DNA of 40,001 bases from Escherichia virus TH20 (MT446394.1); one strand, 5' to 3'; counted from the stretch's first letter, positions 1 to 40,001 are shown. Translations and numbers: made by a program. Notes: a model not told the origin generated them from the letters alone.

Positions 1-807
1 GTTGACGGTAGGCTGAAGGTTGAATGACCCTAAGAACATCAGGTTCAGACGAGTGGTATCCTTCTTGCGGTATTCCTGCCAGACCGGGAAACCATCAGGT
101 GTGACCCAGTGTACCGGAAGGCAAGGCTTCAGGATTTCACCCGTCTTCTTGTCCTTCACTTCAGCAGCCAGCAGCTTGGCAGCACCTTGAAGCCACTTCA
201 TAGCGTCTACCGCAGCAACTACGGTCACGCTCACAGCTTCCCAAATCATCTTAGCCATGAATCGGGACGCTTGGCTTGGCTCGGTGAACATAGCTCCAGA
301 CCCTGCGTCAATTGCGGGCATCACGATGTCCTCGTAAACTTGGTCTGCGAAGCCGTACTCTTTCGACCCGTAGGCCAGAGTCATGACTGAGCGCTTAGTA
401 ACCTTGCGTGACATACCGTAAGTCAGCCACTGCCGGGCCAGCTCTCGTGTCCCCAGCTTGAGACGTTCGGTAATCTCACCAGTTTTCTTGTCCTCGTGAG
501 TTACCATCTCGTTGTCCGTGCCGTTAACCAACAGGACTTTAAGCTCCTCCTCAATGCGGTCAGACACGATGCGGTAGATGTCTTGGACCTTACCGGAAGG
601 CGTCAGGTTTACTGCATGTCCACCGATGTGATCACGAAGCATCGCGCTGAAGTGCTGAATCCCAGAGCAGGACCCATCGAAAGCTATCGGCAGCGAGCAG
701 GAGTAAGACAAACCGTGGTGCATTACGCCAGCATACTCGAAGCAGAACGCTAGGAAGCAGAACGGAGAGTCTAACTTACCCCACCACTCAATGCTGTCCA
801 TCGGTGC
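1..807. repeat. Window-end duplication, copy 1 (same sequence as 39195-40001); artefact of wrapping a circularised or permuted assembly
   Basis: Track ORFs 109..390 and 496..753 have identical translations to 39303..39584 and 39690..39947 (offset 39,194); first 46 nt match by eye. Confidence 0.9.
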
Positions 808-2316
808 CTTAGCGGTAGCCATGATGTTGTCGTGGTTATCTTCCACCCACTTGATGCGCTCATCGAAGGTTACTTTATCGACACCCGCACAGTTTGCACC
901 GTGGACCTTCAGCCATTTGAAACCATCAGCACCAATAGGCTTACCGACTGCCAGAGTCAGGAGACCCTTTTGCATGTCGTTACCCTGAGGGTTGAACATC
1001 GGCACAGCGTAGACGCGACCGCGCCAGTCCATGTTATACGGGAACCAGATGGCCTTGAACTGAGAGAACTTGTTCGCTTGGTTAACGATAAAGCTCAGTG
1101 ACAATCTGCGTGACTGGCGGGCCTTCTCTCGGCGGTAGATACCAGCAGCAGTCTTCTTCCATGCCTTGAGTTCCTCTTCAGTCTCACCCGCATAGTCTTC
1201 AGGCTTCAGTGGCTCCATCTGAGGGATGTCATCAATAGGCGTGTTGTTCAACTTCTCGACCATGTTCACCACGTCCAGAACCTTCTTGTTCACTTTCCAA
1301 GGCGTATTCTGGATGATATTCACAGCGTCATAGACTTCAGGCATGTACACGTCTTCATAGCGTGCCACCGCAGACTTAGACCCTAAGCGAATCAATGGTA
1401 GTGGTCTGCGACCTTTGGCCCAGTACCCACCGCCTACGACACCAGTCCATGGCTTAGGTGGAACGACGCAAGGTTGATAGACCGGAGCGATACCCGCAAG
1501 GCTGAAGCCTCGTTGTGCCATCTTCTTGACCCAGAAGTCTGACAGGTGGACCATCTCTACATCAGCCGCTGCATTGCCAGCACCGTAGCGCTTAAGCTCG
1601 ACCAGTTGTGTTGACTGGATGACAATCTCAAGCATCTTGATTCCAACGTGGACAGCCTCGGTCGGACTCCAAGTCCCCCACGCATCTTCCAGTTGTCCTT
1701 GCTCCAGCATGGATGTCTCAACCGCTTGCATGTAGGCTTTTTTGTAGGATGCCCCGGCCCGCTTGTTCAGGTTCTCAGCTATCGCCTTCTTGAAGTGCTC
1801 CTTCTCCTTGTCACGGATGCGACCGAAGCGGATTTCGTCCTCAAGTGTGCGACCTATCGCGGAGGCCATCGGTGTAATCGGTATCCCTTCAGGCTTGACC
1901 AGCTTGGAGAGTATTACCTTCAGTATGATGACCGCAGCAGACTCGCAGGAGATACGCAGATAGCGGTCCTTGACGGCCTTCTCTTCAGTGCTCAACATGG
2001 TGAACGCTACGCTAGGACGAGAGGTTGACAGCTTCCCGTCTGGACCTTCATGCCACTCCCTGACGGCTTGCGCAATCTTAGGGACCAGAGTCTGCATCAA
2101 AGGCTTGGCGACCTGATTGTCTGCCAGTTCCCCACGCTCAGTCTGTCGCTCAAGGTTCTTGATGAAACGTCGCTCGCCTTCAGTGTATGCCTCATGCTCA
2201 AGCTGAAGCTGTTTGACTGCAAGGTCTTGTCCATAGTGGTCAGCCAGCAGGTTAAACGGCTCAATAGCGTTAGACACATCAGAGAAGTCGTGTTTGTCAA
2301 TAGAGATGACGCTCAT
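1..2316 (-). CDS. T7-type single-subunit DNA-directed RNA polymerase (gene 1), N-terminal 772 codons; continues at 38829..39194 (full length about 893 aa)
   Basis: ATG at 2316-2314 with AAGGA upstream; hand translation MSVISIDKHDFSD... runs co-linear with T7 RNAP (FPYNMDWRGRVYA, NPQGNDM, HGANCAGVDK); no stop before window start. Confidence 0.95.
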   Translation of the reverse strand, partial: MSVISIDKHDFSDVSNAIEPFNLLADHYGQDLAVKQLQLEHEAYTEGERRFIKNLERQTERGELADNQVAKPLMQTLVPKIAQAVREWHEGPDGKLSTSRPSVAFTMLSTEEKAVKDRYLRISCESAAVIILKVILSKLVKPEGIPITPMASAIGRTLEDEIRFGRIRDKEKEHFKKAIAENLNKRAGASYKKAYMQAVETSMLEQGQLEDAWGTWSPTEAVHVGIKMLEIVIQSTQLVELKRYGAGNAAADVEMVHLSDFWVKKMAQRGFSLAGIAPVYQPCVVPPKPWTGVVGGGYWAKGRRPLPLIRLGSKSAVARYEDVYMPEVYDAVNIIQNTPWKVNKKVLDVVNMVEKLNNTPIDDIPQMEPLKPEDYAGETEEELKAWKKTAAGIYRREKARQSRRLSLSFIVNQANKFSQFKAIWFPYNMDWRGRVYAVPMFNPQGNDMQKGLLTLAVGKPIGADGFKWLKVHGANCAGVDKVTFDERIKWVEDNHDNIMATAKAPMDSIEWWGKLDSPFCFLAFCFEYAGVMHHGLSYSCSLPIAFDGSCSGIQHFSAMLRDHIGGHAVNLTPSGKVQDIYRIVSDRIEEELKVLLVNGTDNEMVTHEDKKTGEITERLKLGTRELARQWLTYGMSRKVTKRSVMTLAYGSKEYGFADQVYEDIVMPAIDAGSGAMFTEPSQASRFMAKMIWEAVSVTVVAAVDAMKWLQGAAKLLAAEVKDKKTGEILKPCLPVHWVTPDGFPVWQEYRKKDTTRLNLMFLGSFNLQPTVN

Positions 2317-2385
2317 ACTTAAAGTCCTTGTTATTAGTCTTTCACTTAAAGTCTCTTTGGTCTTTCACTTGGAGTCTTAGACCTT

Positions 2386-2408
2386 GAGTCCTATAGTGAT
2401 AATTAAGT
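2386..2408 (-). promoter_or_regulatory. Phage-RNAP promoter-like site (variant TTAATTATCACTATAGGACTC) about 70 nt upstream of the RNAP gene
   Basis: CACTATAGG core on minus strand, +1 G at 2391; differs from window consensus at -10 and +3 to +6. Confidence 0.45.
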
Positions 2409-2413
2409 CAGAA

Positions 2414-2674
2414 TCACTTGAATATCAGTGGGTTAGCGTGAAGATGGCTGAAGTCACCATGAGTCGTGTGCTTGATGGTTGACCGTTGGTCTATCGCCGT
2501 CCAGCCTGAGACTAAAAGTTTACCATCGTCAGTGATTGGTCGTCCACCATACGCCAGACACATCAGTTCGGACTTATGGCCCTCAGCCATCATGCGGCGC
2601 TGTAAGAACATGTCACGCTGCGCTTGCTCAACACGGCTACGGCTAGAGGGTTTGTTAGTGTATACGGTTTTCAT
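2414..2674 (-). CDS. Hypothetical early protein, 86 aa
   Basis: ATG at 2674 overlaps stop of upstream ORF (TAATG); last ORF of the early operon before gene 1; no family recognised. Confidence 0.5.
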   Translation of the reverse strand: MKTVYTNKPSSRSRVEQAQRDMFLQRRMMAEGHKSELMCLAYGGRPITDDGKLLVSGWTAIDQRSTIKHTTHGDFSHLHANPLIFK

Positions 2675-2871
2675 TACAGTTTGCTCCCAAGAGTTGCTAT
2701 ATCCCAGACGTTCGCTAAGTTGCGCATGAATCGTCCGTTAGGTTGACGTACAGTCCAGCGACCCAGACGTACATAGTTAAATTTGTAGACTTTACGCGCT
2801 TTGTTGATGTCTCTCACCAGCACGTAGGTGATAAGTCCATAGCCGAAGATACCCAGAAGTATCCAGCTCAT
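2674..2871 (-). CDS. Hypothetical early protein, 65 aa, hydrophobic N-terminus then basic tail
   Basis: ATG start overlapping upstream stop (TAATG); N-terminal WILLGIFGYGLITYVLV looks like a TM helix. Confidence 0.5.
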   Translation of the reverse strand: MSWILLGIFGYGLITYVLVRDINKARKVYKFNYVRLGRWTVRQPNGRFMRNLANVWDIATLGSKL

Positions 2872-2960
2872 TAGAATGACCCTCGCTTGATTGCGTCAAG
2901 AAGGCCCCAAGCTATCAGGAAGATGACCGGAGACAGGCATACCCAGTAACCTATATTCAT
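2871..2960 (-). CDS. Hypothetical small hydrophobic peptide, 29 aa
   Basis: Hand translation MNIGYWVCLSPVIFLIAWGLLDAIKRGSF; TAGGAG 6 nt upstream of ATG; stop overlaps next start; below track size cutoff. Confidence 0.3.
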   Translation of the reverse strand: MNIGYWVCLSPVIFLIAWGLLDAIKRGSF

Positions 2961-3030
2961 AGTTAACTCCTATCAATGTAAGTGAAAATCTTTGAGGCCA
3001 CCTATCAGTCGATGACCTCTCGTCTATCAC

Positions 3031-3156
3031 TCAGTACCCGCCTGTCAGCGTTATGGTCAGGCTATGGTGATTAGCCACGTAGCAGGCCCCGCGCTTCATC
3101 ATCTCGTAGCACCCATCGTAGAACGCCTGTTCACTACTATAAGTTATCTGGTACAT
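3031..3156 (-). CDS. Hypothetical early protein, 41 aa
   Basis: Hand translation MYQITYSSEQAFYDGCYEMMKRGACYVANHHSLTITLTGGY; GAGGA upstream; below track size cutoff. Confidence 0.3.
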   Translation of the reverse strand: MYQITYSSEQAFYDGCYEMMKRGACYVANHHSLTITLTGGY

Positions 3157-3158
3157 GT

Positions 3159-3314
3159 TTACTTGTCCTCAGAGTGTAAGCTGTCGTGTATACGCTTGCG
3201 GCCCTCATAGACCGCCTTCAGGTGACGCATAGTCGCATCATGGTTTAACTGCCCGGTCTTGACCATAATCCGGGCGTTAGCGACGTGGTGCTGGCAGAGA
3301 CCATAAGTTACCAT
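3159..3314 (-). CDS. Hypothetical early protein, 51 aa
   Basis: ATG overlaps stop of Ocr-like gene (TGATG); hand translation [51 protein letters not shown]. Confidence 0.35.
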   Translation of the reverse strand: MVTYGLCQHHVANARIMVKTGQLNHDATMRHLKAVYEGRKRIHDSLHSEDK

Positions 3315-7591: not shown

Positions 7592-7644
7592 AGTTGCCCT
7601 CCCGGTTTATCAGATTTCACGTAGAGTCTCCTCCACTAGTTAGT

Positions 7645-7690
7645 GTTAACCATAAAGGCCACTACATATAGTAATGACCTTGAGTCTAAC
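7645..7690 (-). promoter_or_regulatory. Conserved stem-loop, candidate RNase III processing site (R18.5 position)
   Basis: One of three copies of AATCATAAAGGCCAC...ATGACCTTGAGTCTA; the stem needs a G-U pair on the minus-sense RNA but is a C-A mismatch on the plus strand. Confidence 0.4.
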
Positions 7691-7692
7691 AC

Positions 7693-7956
7693 TTATTGAA
7701 CACCATACCCGGTGTCATTATCTTCCGTAGATGAGAGCACCTTATCGTACTCTGCGTTCAGGGCCTCCATATCAGCCAGAGTCTTCTCGTCGACAGACAC
7801 CTTGCTTAGCACGAAGTTGTGACGAGCCAGTAGCTTCTCAATGGCGTTGTAAAGCTGAGGTGAACGCTTAGTGTCATCCCGCAGGTCTTGCAGCATGAGT
7901 CGAGCACGTTCAGTATCTAGCATCAAGAGGAACTTCTCTAAGTCCATCTGCGTCAT
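7693..7956 (-). CDS. Terminase small subunit (T7 gp18-like), 87 aa
   Basis: Size and position; ATG 7956 overlaps holin stop (ATGA). Confidence 0.8.
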   Translation of the reverse strand: MTQMDLEKFLLMLDTERARLMLQDLRDDTKRSPQLYNAIEKLLARHNFVLSKVSVDEKTLADMEALNAEYDKVLSSTEDNDTGYGVQ

Positions 7957-10874: not shown

Positions 10875-13800
10875 CCTTGATGTGGATGCCTTGCTCCTCA
10901 AACGTTCCAAGCAACAGCTTCTGGGTAATTGGGTCGTTAGGAACCAGTTCACGGAACGTATTATACATCCCGGTCATGTAGTCTCGCTCGTTGACACGAG
11001 TATCAGCCTTGAGGTAGCCAGCCAAGTTGTAAGCCGAAGCACCAACGTTAGCAGCATATCCGAAAGCGGGAACCTGCTCCAAGAAGCTACCAACAACATT
11101 CATCACAGGGTCACTTGTAGCTGCACCATACGCGATGGCACGTTCAGGTTTCTCTGTAGGTGAACGAGGAAGGATAGACGAACGTAGCATCTTAGTGTCC
11201 TCATACCCAGCGATCCCGCCCAGAATGTTGGCGACACCTAGTGGTCCACCGAGATGTGAACTACGTGATAGAGCTGCATATCCAATCATCGTTGGGTCCA
11301 GAGCTTGCTTGAGGTAGTCACGGTCTCGACCATCCTGCATAGCGTAAGCCTTGACATGCACCTGAGCCATGTAGTAGATACCAGCAAGACCCATAGAGAT
11401 CACAGTGGACAGAGCGGCGTCCATCGCTCGGTTGTTCTTCGTGGCGTTATAGAAGGTTCGCATGGTACGTCCATTGATGGACTTGATGACGAAGTTCTTA
11501 AACTGAAGGACAGTCTTAGCGAGAGGACCATAAGCCTTGGCGTCCATGTTTGACAGCTTGTGGGGCCGGAGTAACGTTTCGTCAGCGATGGTGTCACCCA
11601 TACGCCACAGGTCCATAGCCCTTGGGTCCTGACTGAACGCCTTCTTATCCTTGATGGTATACTTCCCGTCTGGACCACGAGTCACTGACTCACGGATTAA
11701 TGACTTAATGCCCTTCCACTGCTCGTCGGAGATACCAGCGGTCTTAAGCCAGCGGTCATCGAACTTACGCTTACTACCAGTCAGGCTATGCTCAACGATG
11801 TCAGACAGGAAGCCTTGACGTCCAGCATCTAACAGGTAGTTGGTCGTACCATTGAGGACTTTAGTGAACGGAGAGCGTACTGCAAGTTCACCAGTGTAAT
11901 ACTTAGCAGTCCCCAGAGCTGTAGCTGTACCACGACCGAGGTCACTGTAAGACCGCAGACGGTCAATGACGTCCTGTTTAGACGGGCGGATTGAGTCATC
12001 AAGTTCCTTACCGAAGAGAACATTGTGAAGGTCCTTAATCTCTGAGGCTCCGACCTTCTTGTTACGGAAGGCTAGGTCACGGAACATCGGGACTCCATGA
12101 AGCATTGCACGAACGTTACCGCGAGCCAGCATACCACCAATCTCCGTTAAGTTCTGAACACCCATGTAGGCATTCTTAGCGAAGAACGATAGGTCTGTCA
12201 TTGTGCGCATCACGGTAGCGAAGGCTGCATCGTCAGCACCATCACGTCGAGCACGACCAGTGAGAATCTTCAAGGTGTCACGTAAGGTCGAGACCTCACC
12301 TTTCAACTTACCGTCATCACCAGCCTTGTTCATCATGGTCTCAACCAAGTCCTTCATTTCCTTCGTGGTCTTGCCTGTACCAGCCATGATAGCAATGTCA
12401 CCATTAACTCGACGGTTGTAGGCCGGGACAATCTTGTCCATGTCCCACTCACGCAGGTTGTTGACACTGAAGGTCTGCCCATTAGGTAGGACGATTGACA
12501 TATCGCTATCGAACAGGTTACGAGCCTCAAGGAAGCTGTTGTTCTCCAGACCAACCAGACCGCTGATGTTCTCTTCCATTACGGATGAACGTTCGAACTG
12601 CTCGGTGTGGGAGATACCGTAAGCCTTATCGTTGGCGTACTTATCTACCGCAGCAGCAAGTCCCTCTGGAGTCAACGTAGGGTCAGCCTCTAAGAGTGCC
12701 TCGTCCACGCGTTTCTTGACTTCAGGTCTGGACGCATAGCTGGTCAACCATGACTTCTTGATGGCCTCCTGCAACGCCTCTTGACTCCCAAGCTCCTTGA
12801 TGTACAGCTCCTTCATCTGTTTGCTATACACGTGAGGGACGTAGGTTCCCTTGAAGCGGCTACCCGGAAAGATAGACTGAGCGTCTGGCCGACCAAACAT
12901 AGCTGGGTTCTCCATCATCTCACGCTTGGCGTCAAACTGGTTCTTCAGTAGGTCATAGACTTTCAGTTCTCCCGGAGTCAGTTCAGCCTTCAGGTTTCCG
13001 CTACCATCTTCGATAGCCATAGACACGCGCTGGTAGATGTCCTGACGGAATGCTCCAGAGTCTCGCCAGAATGCTGTCTGGAAGTACGGGTCCTTTAGTG
13101 CCTCAGTAACCGCATCGTCGATGTCGTTGTAGAACCGATGGTCCACAGCACGAAGTCTCTCGAACACGTCTGACGATGTTGTCCCGATTTTACCTGAGGC
13201 CCCAGACTGCATACCAGTAGGTGAACGCACTAAGTCAGCAGCTACTCCACGAATCTCAGGGTTCTCAGACCGAAGCAGCTTCAGGCCAATCTCGGTAAGT
13301 CCACCAAGGTTCACACCAGCAGCGGCACGTTCCGGCTCAATCACTTCGTCAAAGACTTGACGTGTCTTAGGGTTCAGAGGGTTCTCACCAATCAGGATTG
13401 AACCGTCTTCTAATCGTACACTTCCCGGCTCATTCGGAACGTCAGCGAACTTAACGCCTTGATGACTAAAGGTCTGCTCACCTTCCTGAATAGGGAGACG
13501 AGACAGGTCCTGACCAACAACGTTACGAGCGGTCTCACGAGCTTCCAGACGTGTAGCTGGACCAGCAAACTCGTTGGTTGACTTGCCTAGGGCCTTGCCG
13601 ATAGCGTCCCCGATAGCTGTCATTCCCCCACCGAAGAGAGCACCGCCCATAATTGCCTCAGCCACGTGAGCGTCCCCACCAGCAACTGAGGTTCGAGCAA
13701 TCTCGGATGCCCCAGCCAGAGCACCAGACTGAGCAGCCACAGTGAACATCTTGTTGACTAGCTTCCCACCTTTACCTACCTGCCAAGCAATAGGAACGTA

Positions 13801-18514: not shown

Positions 18515-18564
18515 AAGGGCCTATAGTCCCTATAGTGATAGTTAAGGTAAATCTATAGGCCCTT
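18515..18564 (-). promoter_or_regulatory. Perfect 12-bp inverted repeat (AAGGGCCTATAG / CTATAGGCCCTT) enclosing the phi13 promoter; candidate RNase III site
   Basis: Arms at 18515-18526 and 18553-18564, 26-nt loop; sits between tail tube B stop and gene 13. Confidence 0.45.
18525..18547 (-). promoter_or_regulatory. Phage-RNAP promoter (phi13 position): CCTTAACTATCACTATAGGGACT
   Basis: Near-consensus 23-mer, +1 G at 18530. Confidence 0.7.
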
Positions 18565-31145: not shown

Positions 31146-31160
31146 GGTTAATCCTCCGTT

Positions 31161-31205
31161 TAGTCTAATCATAAAGGCCACTCGATGTGAATGACCTTGA
31201 GTCTA
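31161..31205 (-). promoter_or_regulatory. Conserved stem-loop, candidate RNase III site upstream of DNA polymerase gene
   Basis: Second copy of AATCATAAAGGCCAC...ATGACCTTGAGTCTA. Confidence 0.4.
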
Positions 31206-31208
31206 GAC

Positions 31209-33088
<1,880 letters not shown>

Positions 33089-33136: not shown

Positions 33137-33159
33137 CATCCCTAAGGTGATAGTTTAGG
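33137..33159 (-). promoter_or_regulatory. Phage-promoter-like site with altered melting region (CACCTTAGGG instead of CACTATAGGG) upstream of primase-helicase gene
   Basis: Upstream half CCTAAACTATCAC is consensus; -4/-3 changed; function uncertain. Confidence 0.35.
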
Positions 33160-33370
33160 CTTTGAAGAACTGAGACAACTGGTCAGCTTTGGTGTCAGCC
33201 TGACGTGCCTTCATGCCAGCTTCCAGTGACGCGATGGTCAGCTTGTCAGCCAGAGCAGCAGCATCAGCCGCACCGTCAGCAGTCTTCTCTGCTACCTTTC
33301 GTTCCATAACCGCAGCACGACGATAACCACGCACCACCAGACGACCAAGAAATTCGATAAGTTTAATCAT
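33155..33370 (-). CDS. Hypothetical small Ala-rich protein, 71 aa
   Basis: ATG 33370 with AAGGAGA upstream; pattern MxKLIxxLGxLxVRxY...QLSxFF resembles a small T7 protein I cannot place reliably. Confidence 0.5.
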   Translation of the reverse strand: MIKLIEFLGRLVVRGYRRAAVMERKVAEKTADGAADAAALADKLTIASLEAGMKARQADTKADQLSQFFKA

Positions 33371-38435: not shown

Positions 38436-38475
38436 ATGGCTAAATCTCCAGTAATTTACGTTTAGTAGTAAGGGT

Positions 38476-38520
38476 TAATCATGAAGGCCACGACTTTGAG
38501 TCATGACCTTTAGTCTAATC
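38476..38520 (-). promoter_or_regulatory. Conserved stem-loop, candidate RNase III site (R1.1 position)
   Basis: Third copy of AATCAT(A/G)AAGGCCAC...ATGACCTT(G/T)AGTCTA. Confidence 0.4.
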
Positions 38521-38538
38521 CTATAGTGATAGTTTAGG
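38516..38538 (-). promoter_or_regulatory. Phage-RNAP promoter (phi1.1 position): CCTAAACTATCACTATAGGATTA
   Basis: Near-consensus 23-mer, +1 G at 38521. Confidence 0.7.
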
Positions 38539-38828: not shown

Positions 38829-40001
38829 TTAAGCGAATGCAAAGTCTGAAGACAAGATGTCTTCGATATTCAGTTTACCTTTCTTCGGAAGCTCTGGCAA
38901 CTTATCGCGCTGGCTCTCATGAAGCTGGTATTCAAACTGCTCATAGAAGTCAAGCAGCACATCGTTGTCTCGGTAGGTCTCGACCATCGTCTCACGGACA
39001 CCACGGAACAGATACTCAGCGTCAGCCGGGATGGTCCCGAAGCTATCATGAATCACTGCGAATGACATCACGTCATACTTGCGATGAGTGTGGACTACAG
39101 TCTTGCGTAGGTGGCTACCATCTTGTGAGTGGACGAAGTTCGGGCTAATGCCTGACTCCTGCTTGTGCTTGTCCAGCTCTTTCTTCGTGCCTTTGTTGAC
39201 GGTAGGCTGAAGGTTGAATGACCCTAAGAACATCAGGTTCAGACGAGTGGTATCCTTCTTGCGGTATTCCTGCCAGACCGGGAAACCATCAGGTGTGACC
39301 CAGTGTACCGGAAGGCAAGGCTTCAGGATTTCACCCGTCTTCTTGTCCTTCACTTCAGCAGCCAGCAGCTTGGCAGCACCTTGAAGCCACTTCATAGCGT
39401 CTACCGCAGCAACTACGGTCACGCTCACAGCTTCCCAAATCATCTTAGCCATGAATCGGGACGCTTGGCTTGGCTCGGTGAACATAGCTCCAGACCCTGC
39501 GTCAATTGCGGGCATCACGATGTCCTCGTAAACTTGGTCTGCGAAGCCGTACTCTTTCGACCCGTAGGCCAGAGTCATGACTGAGCGCTTAGTAACCTTG
39601 CGTGACATACCGTAAGTCAGCCACTGCCGGGCCAGCTCTCGTGTCCCCAGCTTGAGACGTTCGGTAATCTCACCAGTTTTCTTGTCCTCGTGAGTTACCA
39701 TCTCGTTGTCCGTGCCGTTAACCAACAGGACTTTAAGCTCCTCCTCAATGCGGTCAGACACGATGCGGTAGATGTCTTGGACCTTACCGGAAGGCGTCAG
39801 GTTTACTGCATGTCCACCGATGTGATCACGAAGCATCGCGCTGAAGTGCTGAATCCCAGAGCAGGACCCATCGAAAGCTATCGGCAGCGAGCAGGAGTAA
39901 GACAAACCGTGGTGCATTACGCCAGCATACTCGAAGCAGAACGCTAGGAAGCAGAACGGAGAGTCTAACTTACCCCACCACTCAATGCTGTCCATCGGTG
40001 C
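38829..40001 (-). CDS. T7-type RNA polymerase (gene 1), C-terminal 390 codons plus stop; the part above 39194 duplicates 1-807
   Basis: Translation ends ...DILSSDFAFA as T7 RNAP; contains HQESGI.PNFVHSQDGSHLR and IHDSFGT active-site region; stop at 38829. Confidence 0.95.
   Translation of the reverse strand, partial: APMDSIEWWGKLDSPFCFLAFCFEYAGVMHHGLSYSCSLPIAFDGSCSGIQHFSAMLRDHIGGHAVNLTPSGKVQDIYRIVSDRIEEELKVLLVNGTDNEMVTHEDKKTGEITERLKLGTRELARQWLTYGMSRKVTKRSVMTLAYGSKEYGFADQVYEDIVMPAIDAGSGAMFTEPSQASRFMAKMIWEAVSVTVVAAVDAMKWLQGAAKLLAAEVKDKKTGEILKPCLPVHWVTPDGFPVWQEYRKKDTTRLNLMFLGSFNLQPTVNKGTKKELDKHKQESGISPNFVHSQDGSHLRKTVVHTHRKYDVMSFAVIHDSFGTIPADAEYLFRGVRETMVETYRDNDVLLDFYEQFEYQLHESQRDKLPELPKKGKLNIEDILSSDFAFA
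39195..40001. repeat. Window-end duplication, copy 2 (same sequence as 1-807)
   Basis: See copy 1. Confidence 0.9.

Follow-up and report, generated by a model that had tools for sequence, protein, structure and literature searches.

A conserved Kayfunavirus promoter upstream of the phage RNA polymerase gene, and a probable RNA-level role for its leader

The sequence immediately upstream of gene 1 in Escherichia virus TH20 (MT446394.1) is best explained by a conserved Kayfunavirus promoter, phi1, for the phage's own RNA polymerase, followed by a leader that probably acts at the RNA level by keeping the ribosome-binding site open, and that is not a canonical RNase III site. We put the probability of this combined reading at roughly 70%. 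The promoter is already known, having been annotated in phages EcoDS1 and CR8. The repeats in the leader are a real, conserved, gene-1-specific motif; the 11-mer, conserved and specific to the leader, is a small question and not a discovery.

The window, i.e., the whole stretch of 40,001 nt that was analysed, is a circularly permuted genome of a Kayfunavirus, a K1F/EcoDS1-like relative of T7, whose genes lie on the minus strand. The two terminal 807-nt segments of the window (1-807 and 39195-40001) have the same sequence, indicating that the window wraps around a circular or concatemeric representation of a 39,194-bp genome. Gene 1 encodes a single-subunit RNA polymerase (Pfam PF00940 and PF14700). 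Its ATG start codon is at 2316..2314 (-), and the N-terminal 771 codons occupy 1..2316 (-). Because the window wraps, the C-terminal part of the gene is found at 39194..38829 (-), where it matches phrog_414; an apparent “388-aa ORF” at 38829-39995 (-) is this C-terminal part of the RNA polymerase gene begun at 2316. The upstream neighbor is a gp0.38-like gene at 2414..2674 (-), assigned from phrog_7066 and the EcoDS1 annotation, with a stop codon 5 nt upstream of promoter position -17. The 5.4 kb surrounding phi1 is 92-94% identical to many Kayfunavirus genomes.

Evidence in support of the promoter came from the phage's own consensus. The sequence CACTATAGG occurs exactly nine times in the genome, always on the coding strand, and extension of these nine sites gives the consensus CTWAACTATCACTATAGG. 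There are 10-11 copies of this consensus in the genome, all on the coding strand and at expected intergenic positions, and the nine extended sites coincide with the promoters annotated in EcoDS1 as phi1.1, phi1.6, phi6.5, phi9, phi10, phi13, phi17 and phiOR. phi1 spans -17 to +6 (GACTTAATTATCACTATAGGACTC, 2386..2408 (-)) and matches the consensus over ~23 bp, including the core TCACTATAGG. When the nine other promoters of the genome were used to train a weight matrix and ~80,000 positions were scored with it, phi1 reached 27.2 bits and ranked 10th; the top non-promoter site scored 16.2 bits. The site is intergenic, on the coding strand, and was found in 49/49 sequences, i.e., the window and 48 relatives (K1F, EcoDS1 and 46 further GenBank, IMG/VR and metagenome sequences). 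The first-pass annotation had described a promoter-like 23-mer about 70 nt upstream of gene 1. The sequence that it gave, TTAATTATCACTATAGGACTC, is present at 2408..2388 (-) but is 21 nt long, and the position upstream of gene 1 is borne out, except that the +1 G lies 75 nt from the ATG. Among the other promoters of the genome, phi13 at 18520-18548 (-) has an overlapping duplicated start, CACTATAGGGACTATAGG, that is identical in EcoDS1, GW1 and Dev2. A weaker promoter, GCCTAAACTATCACCTTAGGGATG, lies ahead of the primase/helicase gene at 33137-33160 (-), where it scores 25.9 bits and has CT instead of TA at -4/-3; EcoDS1 has an annotated promoter (11107-11129) in the matching region.

The strongest evidence for the promoter is that the phi1 site appears, from comparison of genomes, to co-evolve with the specificity of the cognate polymerase. 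In GW1, the gene-1-proximal promoter is AAACCCTCACTATAGG and all promoters are of the TAAACCCTCACTATAGG type. In CR8, which belongs to another genus, the gene-1-proximal promoter is GGAAGGTACACTATAGG and all promoters are of the AAGGAAGGTACACTATAGG type. In both phages, the gene-1-proximal site agrees with the other 8-9 promoters of the same genome. The match to the phage's own consensus, the position kept in 48 relatives, and the covariation with promoter specificity together uphold the earlier reading of the site as a phage-type promoter. By analogy with T7-group promoters, transcription is predicted to start at the +1 G of TATAGG, at 2391 (-). phi1 shares the start sequence GGA with the phage's early and middle promoters; the late promoters have GGG. 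The literature searched, which did not include the K1F genome paper, contained no 5'-end mapping for a Kayfunavirus, so initiation at 2391 is inferred. Searches of the gene 1 leader found no host sigma-70 promoter or intrinsic terminator, and no terminator-like site in 2200-3200 was above chance. The polymerase gene and the cognate promoter 75 nt 5' of it are therefore on one strand with no terminator between the two, which is the “autogene” arrangement.

One position of phi1 departs from all of its relatives. The specificity positions -12, -10, -9 and -8 match the consensus but -11 deviates: this position (2402, minus strand) is T in the window, and is C in 48/48 relatives, including EcoDS1 and K1F (GACTTAACTATCACTATAGG), and in the nine other promoters of the genome. 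In T7, -11 is a specificity contact. The T costs ~5 bits, and with C at this position phi1 would score 32.4 bits. The substitution, if not an error of sequencing, is a genuine down-mutation; it may lower or abolish the activity of phi1 in this isolate. The identification of a promoter change unique to this isolate is one of the useful corrective results of the analysis.

The annotated promoter in EcoDS1 (NC_011042) is at 2244-2266, carries the note “phi”, and, as in the window, lies between gene 0.38 and gene 1. The EcoDS1 leader is the same as that of the window from +1 to the ATG, both 17-mers included. The promoter sequence is also present at the same position before gene 1 in K1F (NC_007456), where repeat 1 reads GACTACAAGT. 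The leader repeats have no annotation in the EcoDS1 and K1F records. A “predicted promoter” is annotated between 0.38 and gene 1 in the Citrobacter phage CR8 (Caroctavirus, HG818824; 3356-3378), and the leader that follows is AT-rich with ACTTTAAG-type motifs, like that of the window. CR8 differs from the window in the specificity region of the promoter, GGAAGGTACACTATAGG, and in having a leader that forms a solid 12-bp hairpin, with neither the AAGTGAAAGAC word nor a complement to the promoter core. The first-pass annotation had contrasted the window with T7. This contrast is correct, since the annotation of T7, and likewise those of BA14 and K11, which are of equal standard, have no phage promoter before gene 1.

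Related arrangements have been described in other phages. In a 2026 Kayfunavirus paper, eight CTWAACTATCACTATAGG elements were reported for phage Sparklingdew, one of which lies at the 3' end of SPD_007, with the RNA polymerase gene being SPD_008 (PMC13298934). The K1F polymerase and its promoter, P_K1F, are active as a pair in vivo (PMC12218169). For the Pseudomonas phage LUZ100, the start site of a promoter also called phi1 was mapped directly upstream of the polymerase gene, and a feedback loop was proposed (PMC10134795). For the vibriophage phiA318, a promoter ahead of the genes for the kinase and the polymerase led to the proposal of a self-driven polymerase (PMC4099482). LUZ100 and phiA318 resemble the window in having a phage-specific promoter directly before the polymerase gene, but they belong to distant genera and their promoter sequences are unrelated. 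Moreover, the LUZ100 loop is coupled to a MarR-type lysogeny switch, whereas Kayfunavirus has no such switch. With LUZ100 and phiA318 as precedents, positive autoregulation of gene 1 is a reasonable inference.

The 75-nt 5' leader of gene 1 (2317..2391 (-)) has a distinctive composition, with a GC content of 37% and a purine content of 64%, as compared to genome values of 50% and 53%. It contains six RGAC units, at +2, +16, +30, +39, +53 and +66, that are ~14 nt apart; six GAC per 75 nt is the maximum for the genome, and is attained by 3/10,000 shuffles. The first-pass annotation had drawn attention to two 17-nt direct repeats, and both are where it placed them: copy 1, GACTCCAAGTGAAAGAC, at 2360..2376 (-), which has diverged in GW1 and IJM, and copy 2, GACTTTAAGTGAAAGAC, at 2337..2353 (-), which carries the AAGTGAAAGAC core. 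The two are alike at 15/17 positions, which is above chance; a direct repeat of this quality was reached in 2/3000 dinucleotide shuffles of the leader. The recurrence that had been noted just before the ATG was also found, as a third, partial copy, GACTTTAAGT, at 2326..2317 (-), adjoining the gene 1 ATG after the Shine-Dalgarno sequence. The Shine-Dalgarno itself, AAGGA at 2325..2329 (-), has the strongest anti-Shine-Dalgarno complementarity in the leader (-5.1 kcal/mol). At the other end of the leader, unit 0 (GGACTCAAGGTCT, 2379..2391 (-)) is identical to the 5' half-consensus of canonical T7-type RNase III sites, ACUCAAGGUC, and is invariant across the genus. A repeat search found four 18-nt copies in the leader. 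Tandem Repeats Finder reported no array in the leader at a minimum score of 30, and no Rfam family reached its gathering score anywhere in the window, with a single chance snoRNA match in 2200-2520 at E <= 10. Rather than being a separate device, the 17-mers are the closest-matching pair among about six near-palindromic units (RGAC-U-YY-AAGU).

Comparison with related phages indicates that the leader is under constraint. Among 26 relatives with leaders of the same length, nucleotide diversity is 0.012 in the leader, as compared to 0.138 at third codon positions, 0.016 and 0.010 at first and second codon positions of gene 1, respectively, and 0.067 upstream of the promoter. A similar degree of conservation is seen in the other promoter leaders of these phages, and the gene 1 leader is thus not set apart by conservation alone. 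The 26 relatives show no variation in the 11-mer AAGTGAAAGAC or in the 23 nt that precede the ATG. Every Kayfunavirus leader examined has at least one copy of the 11-mer, and most have two; outside gene 1 itself, it is found only in the gene 1 leader. The lineage of Dev2, IMM-002, EP1 and EcL30g has a rearranged leader of 81 nt, with six GAC units 13-15 nt apart. The 14-mer GGACTTTAAGTATG, which is the last unit of the leader in the window, recurs unchanged in the start region of T7 gene 1.1. Two translational roles for the repeats were considered and rejected. As pseudo ribosome-binding or standby sites, the repeats would need to pair with the 3' end of 16S rRNA, but only the real Shine-Dalgarno and an AAGG at +7 do so, and the count of pseudo Shine-Dalgarno pairings in the leader is not above that of shuffles. 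Upstream mini-ORFs could begin from a GUG in each repeat; reading of the sequences showed that their frames and stops are not kept between lineages.

It had been suggested that the repeats could be an RNase III site equivalent to T7 R1. This suggestion was assessed with a covariance model. The model was derived from seven RNase III sites of T7 (R0.3, R0.5, R1, R1.1, R1.3, R4.7 and R18.5), which have a clear shared consensus structure, with compensatory changes in 11 pairs. It identified four sites of canonical type in the window, each on the coding strand, with scores of 35-52 bits: 7641-7694 (-) at 51.7 bits, 31160-31211 (-) at 47.0 bits, 38470-38523 (-), after phi1.1, at 39.5 bits, and a hairpin in the early region, before the 0.6 / 0.38 / gene 1 block, at 2980-3032 (-) (R1 model, 35.4 bits, E = 2e-5). 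Matching sites were found with the same model in EcoDS1, GW1, Dev2 and CR8, the records of which have no annotation of RNase III sites. With default filters, the gene 1 leader gave no match to the model in any of the five genomes, and with filters off, 2250-2480 of the window scored at most 3.8 bits. The fold of the leader is no more stable than shuffles (z = +0.56, -0.34 and -0.50), as compared to z-scores of -2.5, -3.9 and -1.9 for T7 R1.1, R1.3 and R1 folded as positive controls, and the leader has no compensatory changes. The leader resembles T7 RNase III sites in having the 5' half-consensus ACUCAAGGUC (+3..+12) immediately downstream of a phage promoter, an arrangement shared with R1.1 and R1.3, but it lacks the 3' half-consensus GUGGCCUUUAUGAU as well as the ~10-bp upper stem, 4/5-nt internal loop and ~9-bp lower stem. 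The leader is not a canonical T7-type RNase III site. In GW1, Dev2 and CR8, the site equivalent to 2980-3032 is directly after the 0.7 kinase gene, where T7 has R1. Hence, an R1 equivalent does exist, ~600 nt upstream of the leader, and the assignment of the R1-type site to 2980-3032 instead of the leader is a useful corrective result. A degenerate promoter-like sequence, GAGTTAACTATGAATATAGGTTAC (12.7 bits), which is probably non-functional, lies just downstream of this early hairpin at 2946-2969 (-).

Two alternative explanations involve RNA structure. The leader might be a non-canonical RNase III site, where an irregular hairpin formed by the repeats is cut, freeing gene 1 mRNA from the early polycistronic transcript. 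The sequence from +2 to +12, GACUCAAGGUC, is the 5' half-consensus of T7 R0.5, R1.1, R4.7 and R18.5, several T7 promoters are directly followed by RNase III sites, and the top of the predicted hairpin (GGUCUAAGACU-CCA-AGUGAAAGACC) shares its geometry with the genuine site after phi1.1 (GGUCAUGACU-CAA-AGUCGUGGCC). Set against these similarities are the score of the leader (at most 3.8 bits versus 35-52 bits for the four sites in the same genome), the missing 3' half-consensus GUGGCCUUUAUGAU, and a predicted helix with a 3x3 purine-purine loop and three more internal loops. The R1 position is also already taken by the canonical site at 2980-3032, and likewise in GW1, Dev2 and CR8. While the hairpin has z = -2.1 when folded by itself, trimming to the hairpin biases this value; the full leader, at z = -0.3 to -0.5, is not above shuffles in stability and shows no compensatory changes. 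We consider cutting of this kind distinctly unlikely. The second explanation is that the promoter doubles as one arm of a hairpin, with the read-through RNA UAUCACUAUAGG pairing with CUUUAAGUGA of repeat 2, such that early and phage-initiated gene 1 mRNAs would differ in 5' structure, stability or processing. The imperfect hairpin that is tentatively predicted at 2342..2399 (-) has 19 bp and four internal loops, and places UCACU/AGG of the promoter RNA opposite CUU/AGUGA of repeat 2, around an inner hairpin. Since the promoter RNA is one arm, this hairpin is possible only in read-through transcripts. The UCACU:AGUGA pairing is part of the minimum-energy folds of the window, K1F, GW1 and Dev2. 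In Dev2, IMM-002 and EP1, position -2 of the gene 1 promoter is A (CACTAAAGG), a change that other Dev2 promoters do not have, and an exact 11-nt inverted complement, CTTTAGTGATA, lies ~45 nt downstream of the promoter (Dev2 sequence 462-535). This perfect match arises from three coordinated differences, one of which is the T-to-A change at promoter -2, and has a duplex energy of -14.4 kcal/mol that was equalled by 0/1000 shuffles, suggesting that pairing may matter in at least one lineage. By contrast, the promoter:leader duplex of the window lineage, at -6.7 kcal/mol, was equalled by 197/1000 shuffles, and those of GW1 and CR8 are also not significant. No hairpin pair has changed on both sides, and 14/19 pairs never vary. 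An inverted repeat could equally work at the DNA level. Across nine phages, accessibility of the ribosome-binding site shows no consistent difference between the two transcript forms; in the window, the opening energies are 3.33 and 3.33 kcal/mol for the phage-initiated and read-through forms, respectively. A related candidate, a translational switch in which repeat 2 pairs with either the promoter RNA or the ATG-side copy, was rejected on the same grounds, because the opening energies in the nine phages are not consistently different. A promoter that doubles as a hairpin arm is an unlikely explanation for this window, for which the promoter-leader hairpin is not established, although it is the most interesting loose end of the analysis. 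The lower stem of T7 R0.5 (1440-1490), AGUGAUA...UAUCACU, contains the words of the outer stem of the Dev2-type leader in the opposite order, which is probably a coincidence.

Other explanations do not depend on a folded leader. The repeats might be operators, the first-pass annotation having raised a protein-binding element as its second reading; a phage or host protein bound to them would hold back translation or transcription of gene 1, and this would keep the polymerase feedback in check. The restriction of the 11-mer AAGTGAAAGAC to gene 1 and its leader, its presence at one copy or more, and mostly two, in every Kayfunavirus leader examined, and a leader as constrained as first and second codon positions yet with little structure, are all consistent with an operator. 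No candidate binding protein has been identified, copy 1 is not kept in GW1 or IJM, and the spacing of the repeats varies, from 23 nt in the group that includes the window to 14 nt in the Dev2 group; we regard operators as quite improbable. The promoter and AT-rich leader could instead be a module of the replication-origin type, comparable to T7 phi1.1A/B, with the GAC/GTC units as primase cores. The T7 phi1.1B-to-gene 1.1 leader is similar in its design to that of the window: a promoter is followed by a leader of ~80 nt that is rich in CTTAAG and ACTTTAAG and ends in the same 14-mer, GGACTTTAAGTATG. However, the phi1.1B leader, which is the AT-rich part of the primary origin, is downstream of gene 1, whereas the leader in the window is upstream. 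Whole-leader homology with the T7 phi1.1B sequence was rejected, since the global alignment (z = 7.8) is carried by the shared 14-mer; without this 14-nt ribosome-binding segment the likeness vanishes, and the best T7 match is elsewhere. The 100 nt over the promoter and leader, with a GC content of 33%, are the third most AT-rich stretch in the genome, but the phi6.5, phi10 and phi1.1 leaders are equally AT-rich. There are six GTC cores on the plus strand, including one canonical TGGTC at 2358-2362 (+); the context favored by T7 primase is found in just 1/6 cores, TGGTC is a 5-mer expected at chance level, and the T7 origin region has just two GAC, counted from its sequence. An origin-type role is highly improbable. 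Lastly, the repeats could be a functionless relic, left when the segment with the promoter start and the ribosome-binding region was duplicated by slippage. Unit 0, CTATAGGACTCAAGGT, and unit 1, CTA-AGACTCCAAGTG, look like a duplication that took in the promoter start, the arrangement of units varies by lineage, and the failure of Tandem Repeats Finder to report an array fits old, degenerate copies. The leader diversity, ~12-fold below that of third codon positions, and the lack of any variation among 26 relatives in the 11-mer and in the 23 nt preceding the ATG, make a relic very unlikely.

Under the preferred reading, i.e., a conserved promoter with a leader that keeps the ribosome-binding site open, host RNA polymerase must transcribe gene 1 early in infection from left-end promoters, reading through the phi1 region. 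The phage polymerase, once made, could re-initiate at G 2391, and this re-initiation would sustain gene 1 mRNA after host transcription shut-off, creating a positive loop. The conserved leader, AT-rich, purine-rich and weakly structured, with a first unit that overlaps the promoter start and a last unit that is the ribosome-binding region, would act at the RNA level: as an untranslated region particular to gene 1, it would leave the ribosome-binding site open. By computation, opening this site in the window costs ~3 kcal/mol in both transcript forms. Keeping the ribosome-binding site open is nonetheless a weak, generic function, and it leaves the repeated, conserved 11-mer unexplained. A speculative proposal for the repeated word, which we judge rather unlikely, is that AAGUGAAAGAC, which is complementary to the promoter core UCACU, is a gene-1-specific element that restrains or times self-expression of the polymerase. 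The word is present in one or two copies and, outside gene 1, is restricted to the gene 1 leader. It might act by pairing with the promoter RNA that is found only in host read-through transcripts, such that early and phage-made mRNAs would have different fates, or a protein of phage or host origin might bind it. The first of these routes agrees with the Dev2/IMM-002 lineage, in which the departure of the promoter from the consensus at -2 completes an exact 11-bp complement.

A polymerase gene that sits behind its own promoter forms a self-amplifying circuit. The EcoDS1 and CR8 annotations already show this self-driven arrangement, and it has been discussed in other T7-like phages. Engineered T7 “autogenes”, those of Dubendorff and Studier in 1991, were reportedly hard to maintain. 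The natural upkeep of a self-driven polymerase gene across the genus is therefore mildly interesting, and implies some built-in restraint.
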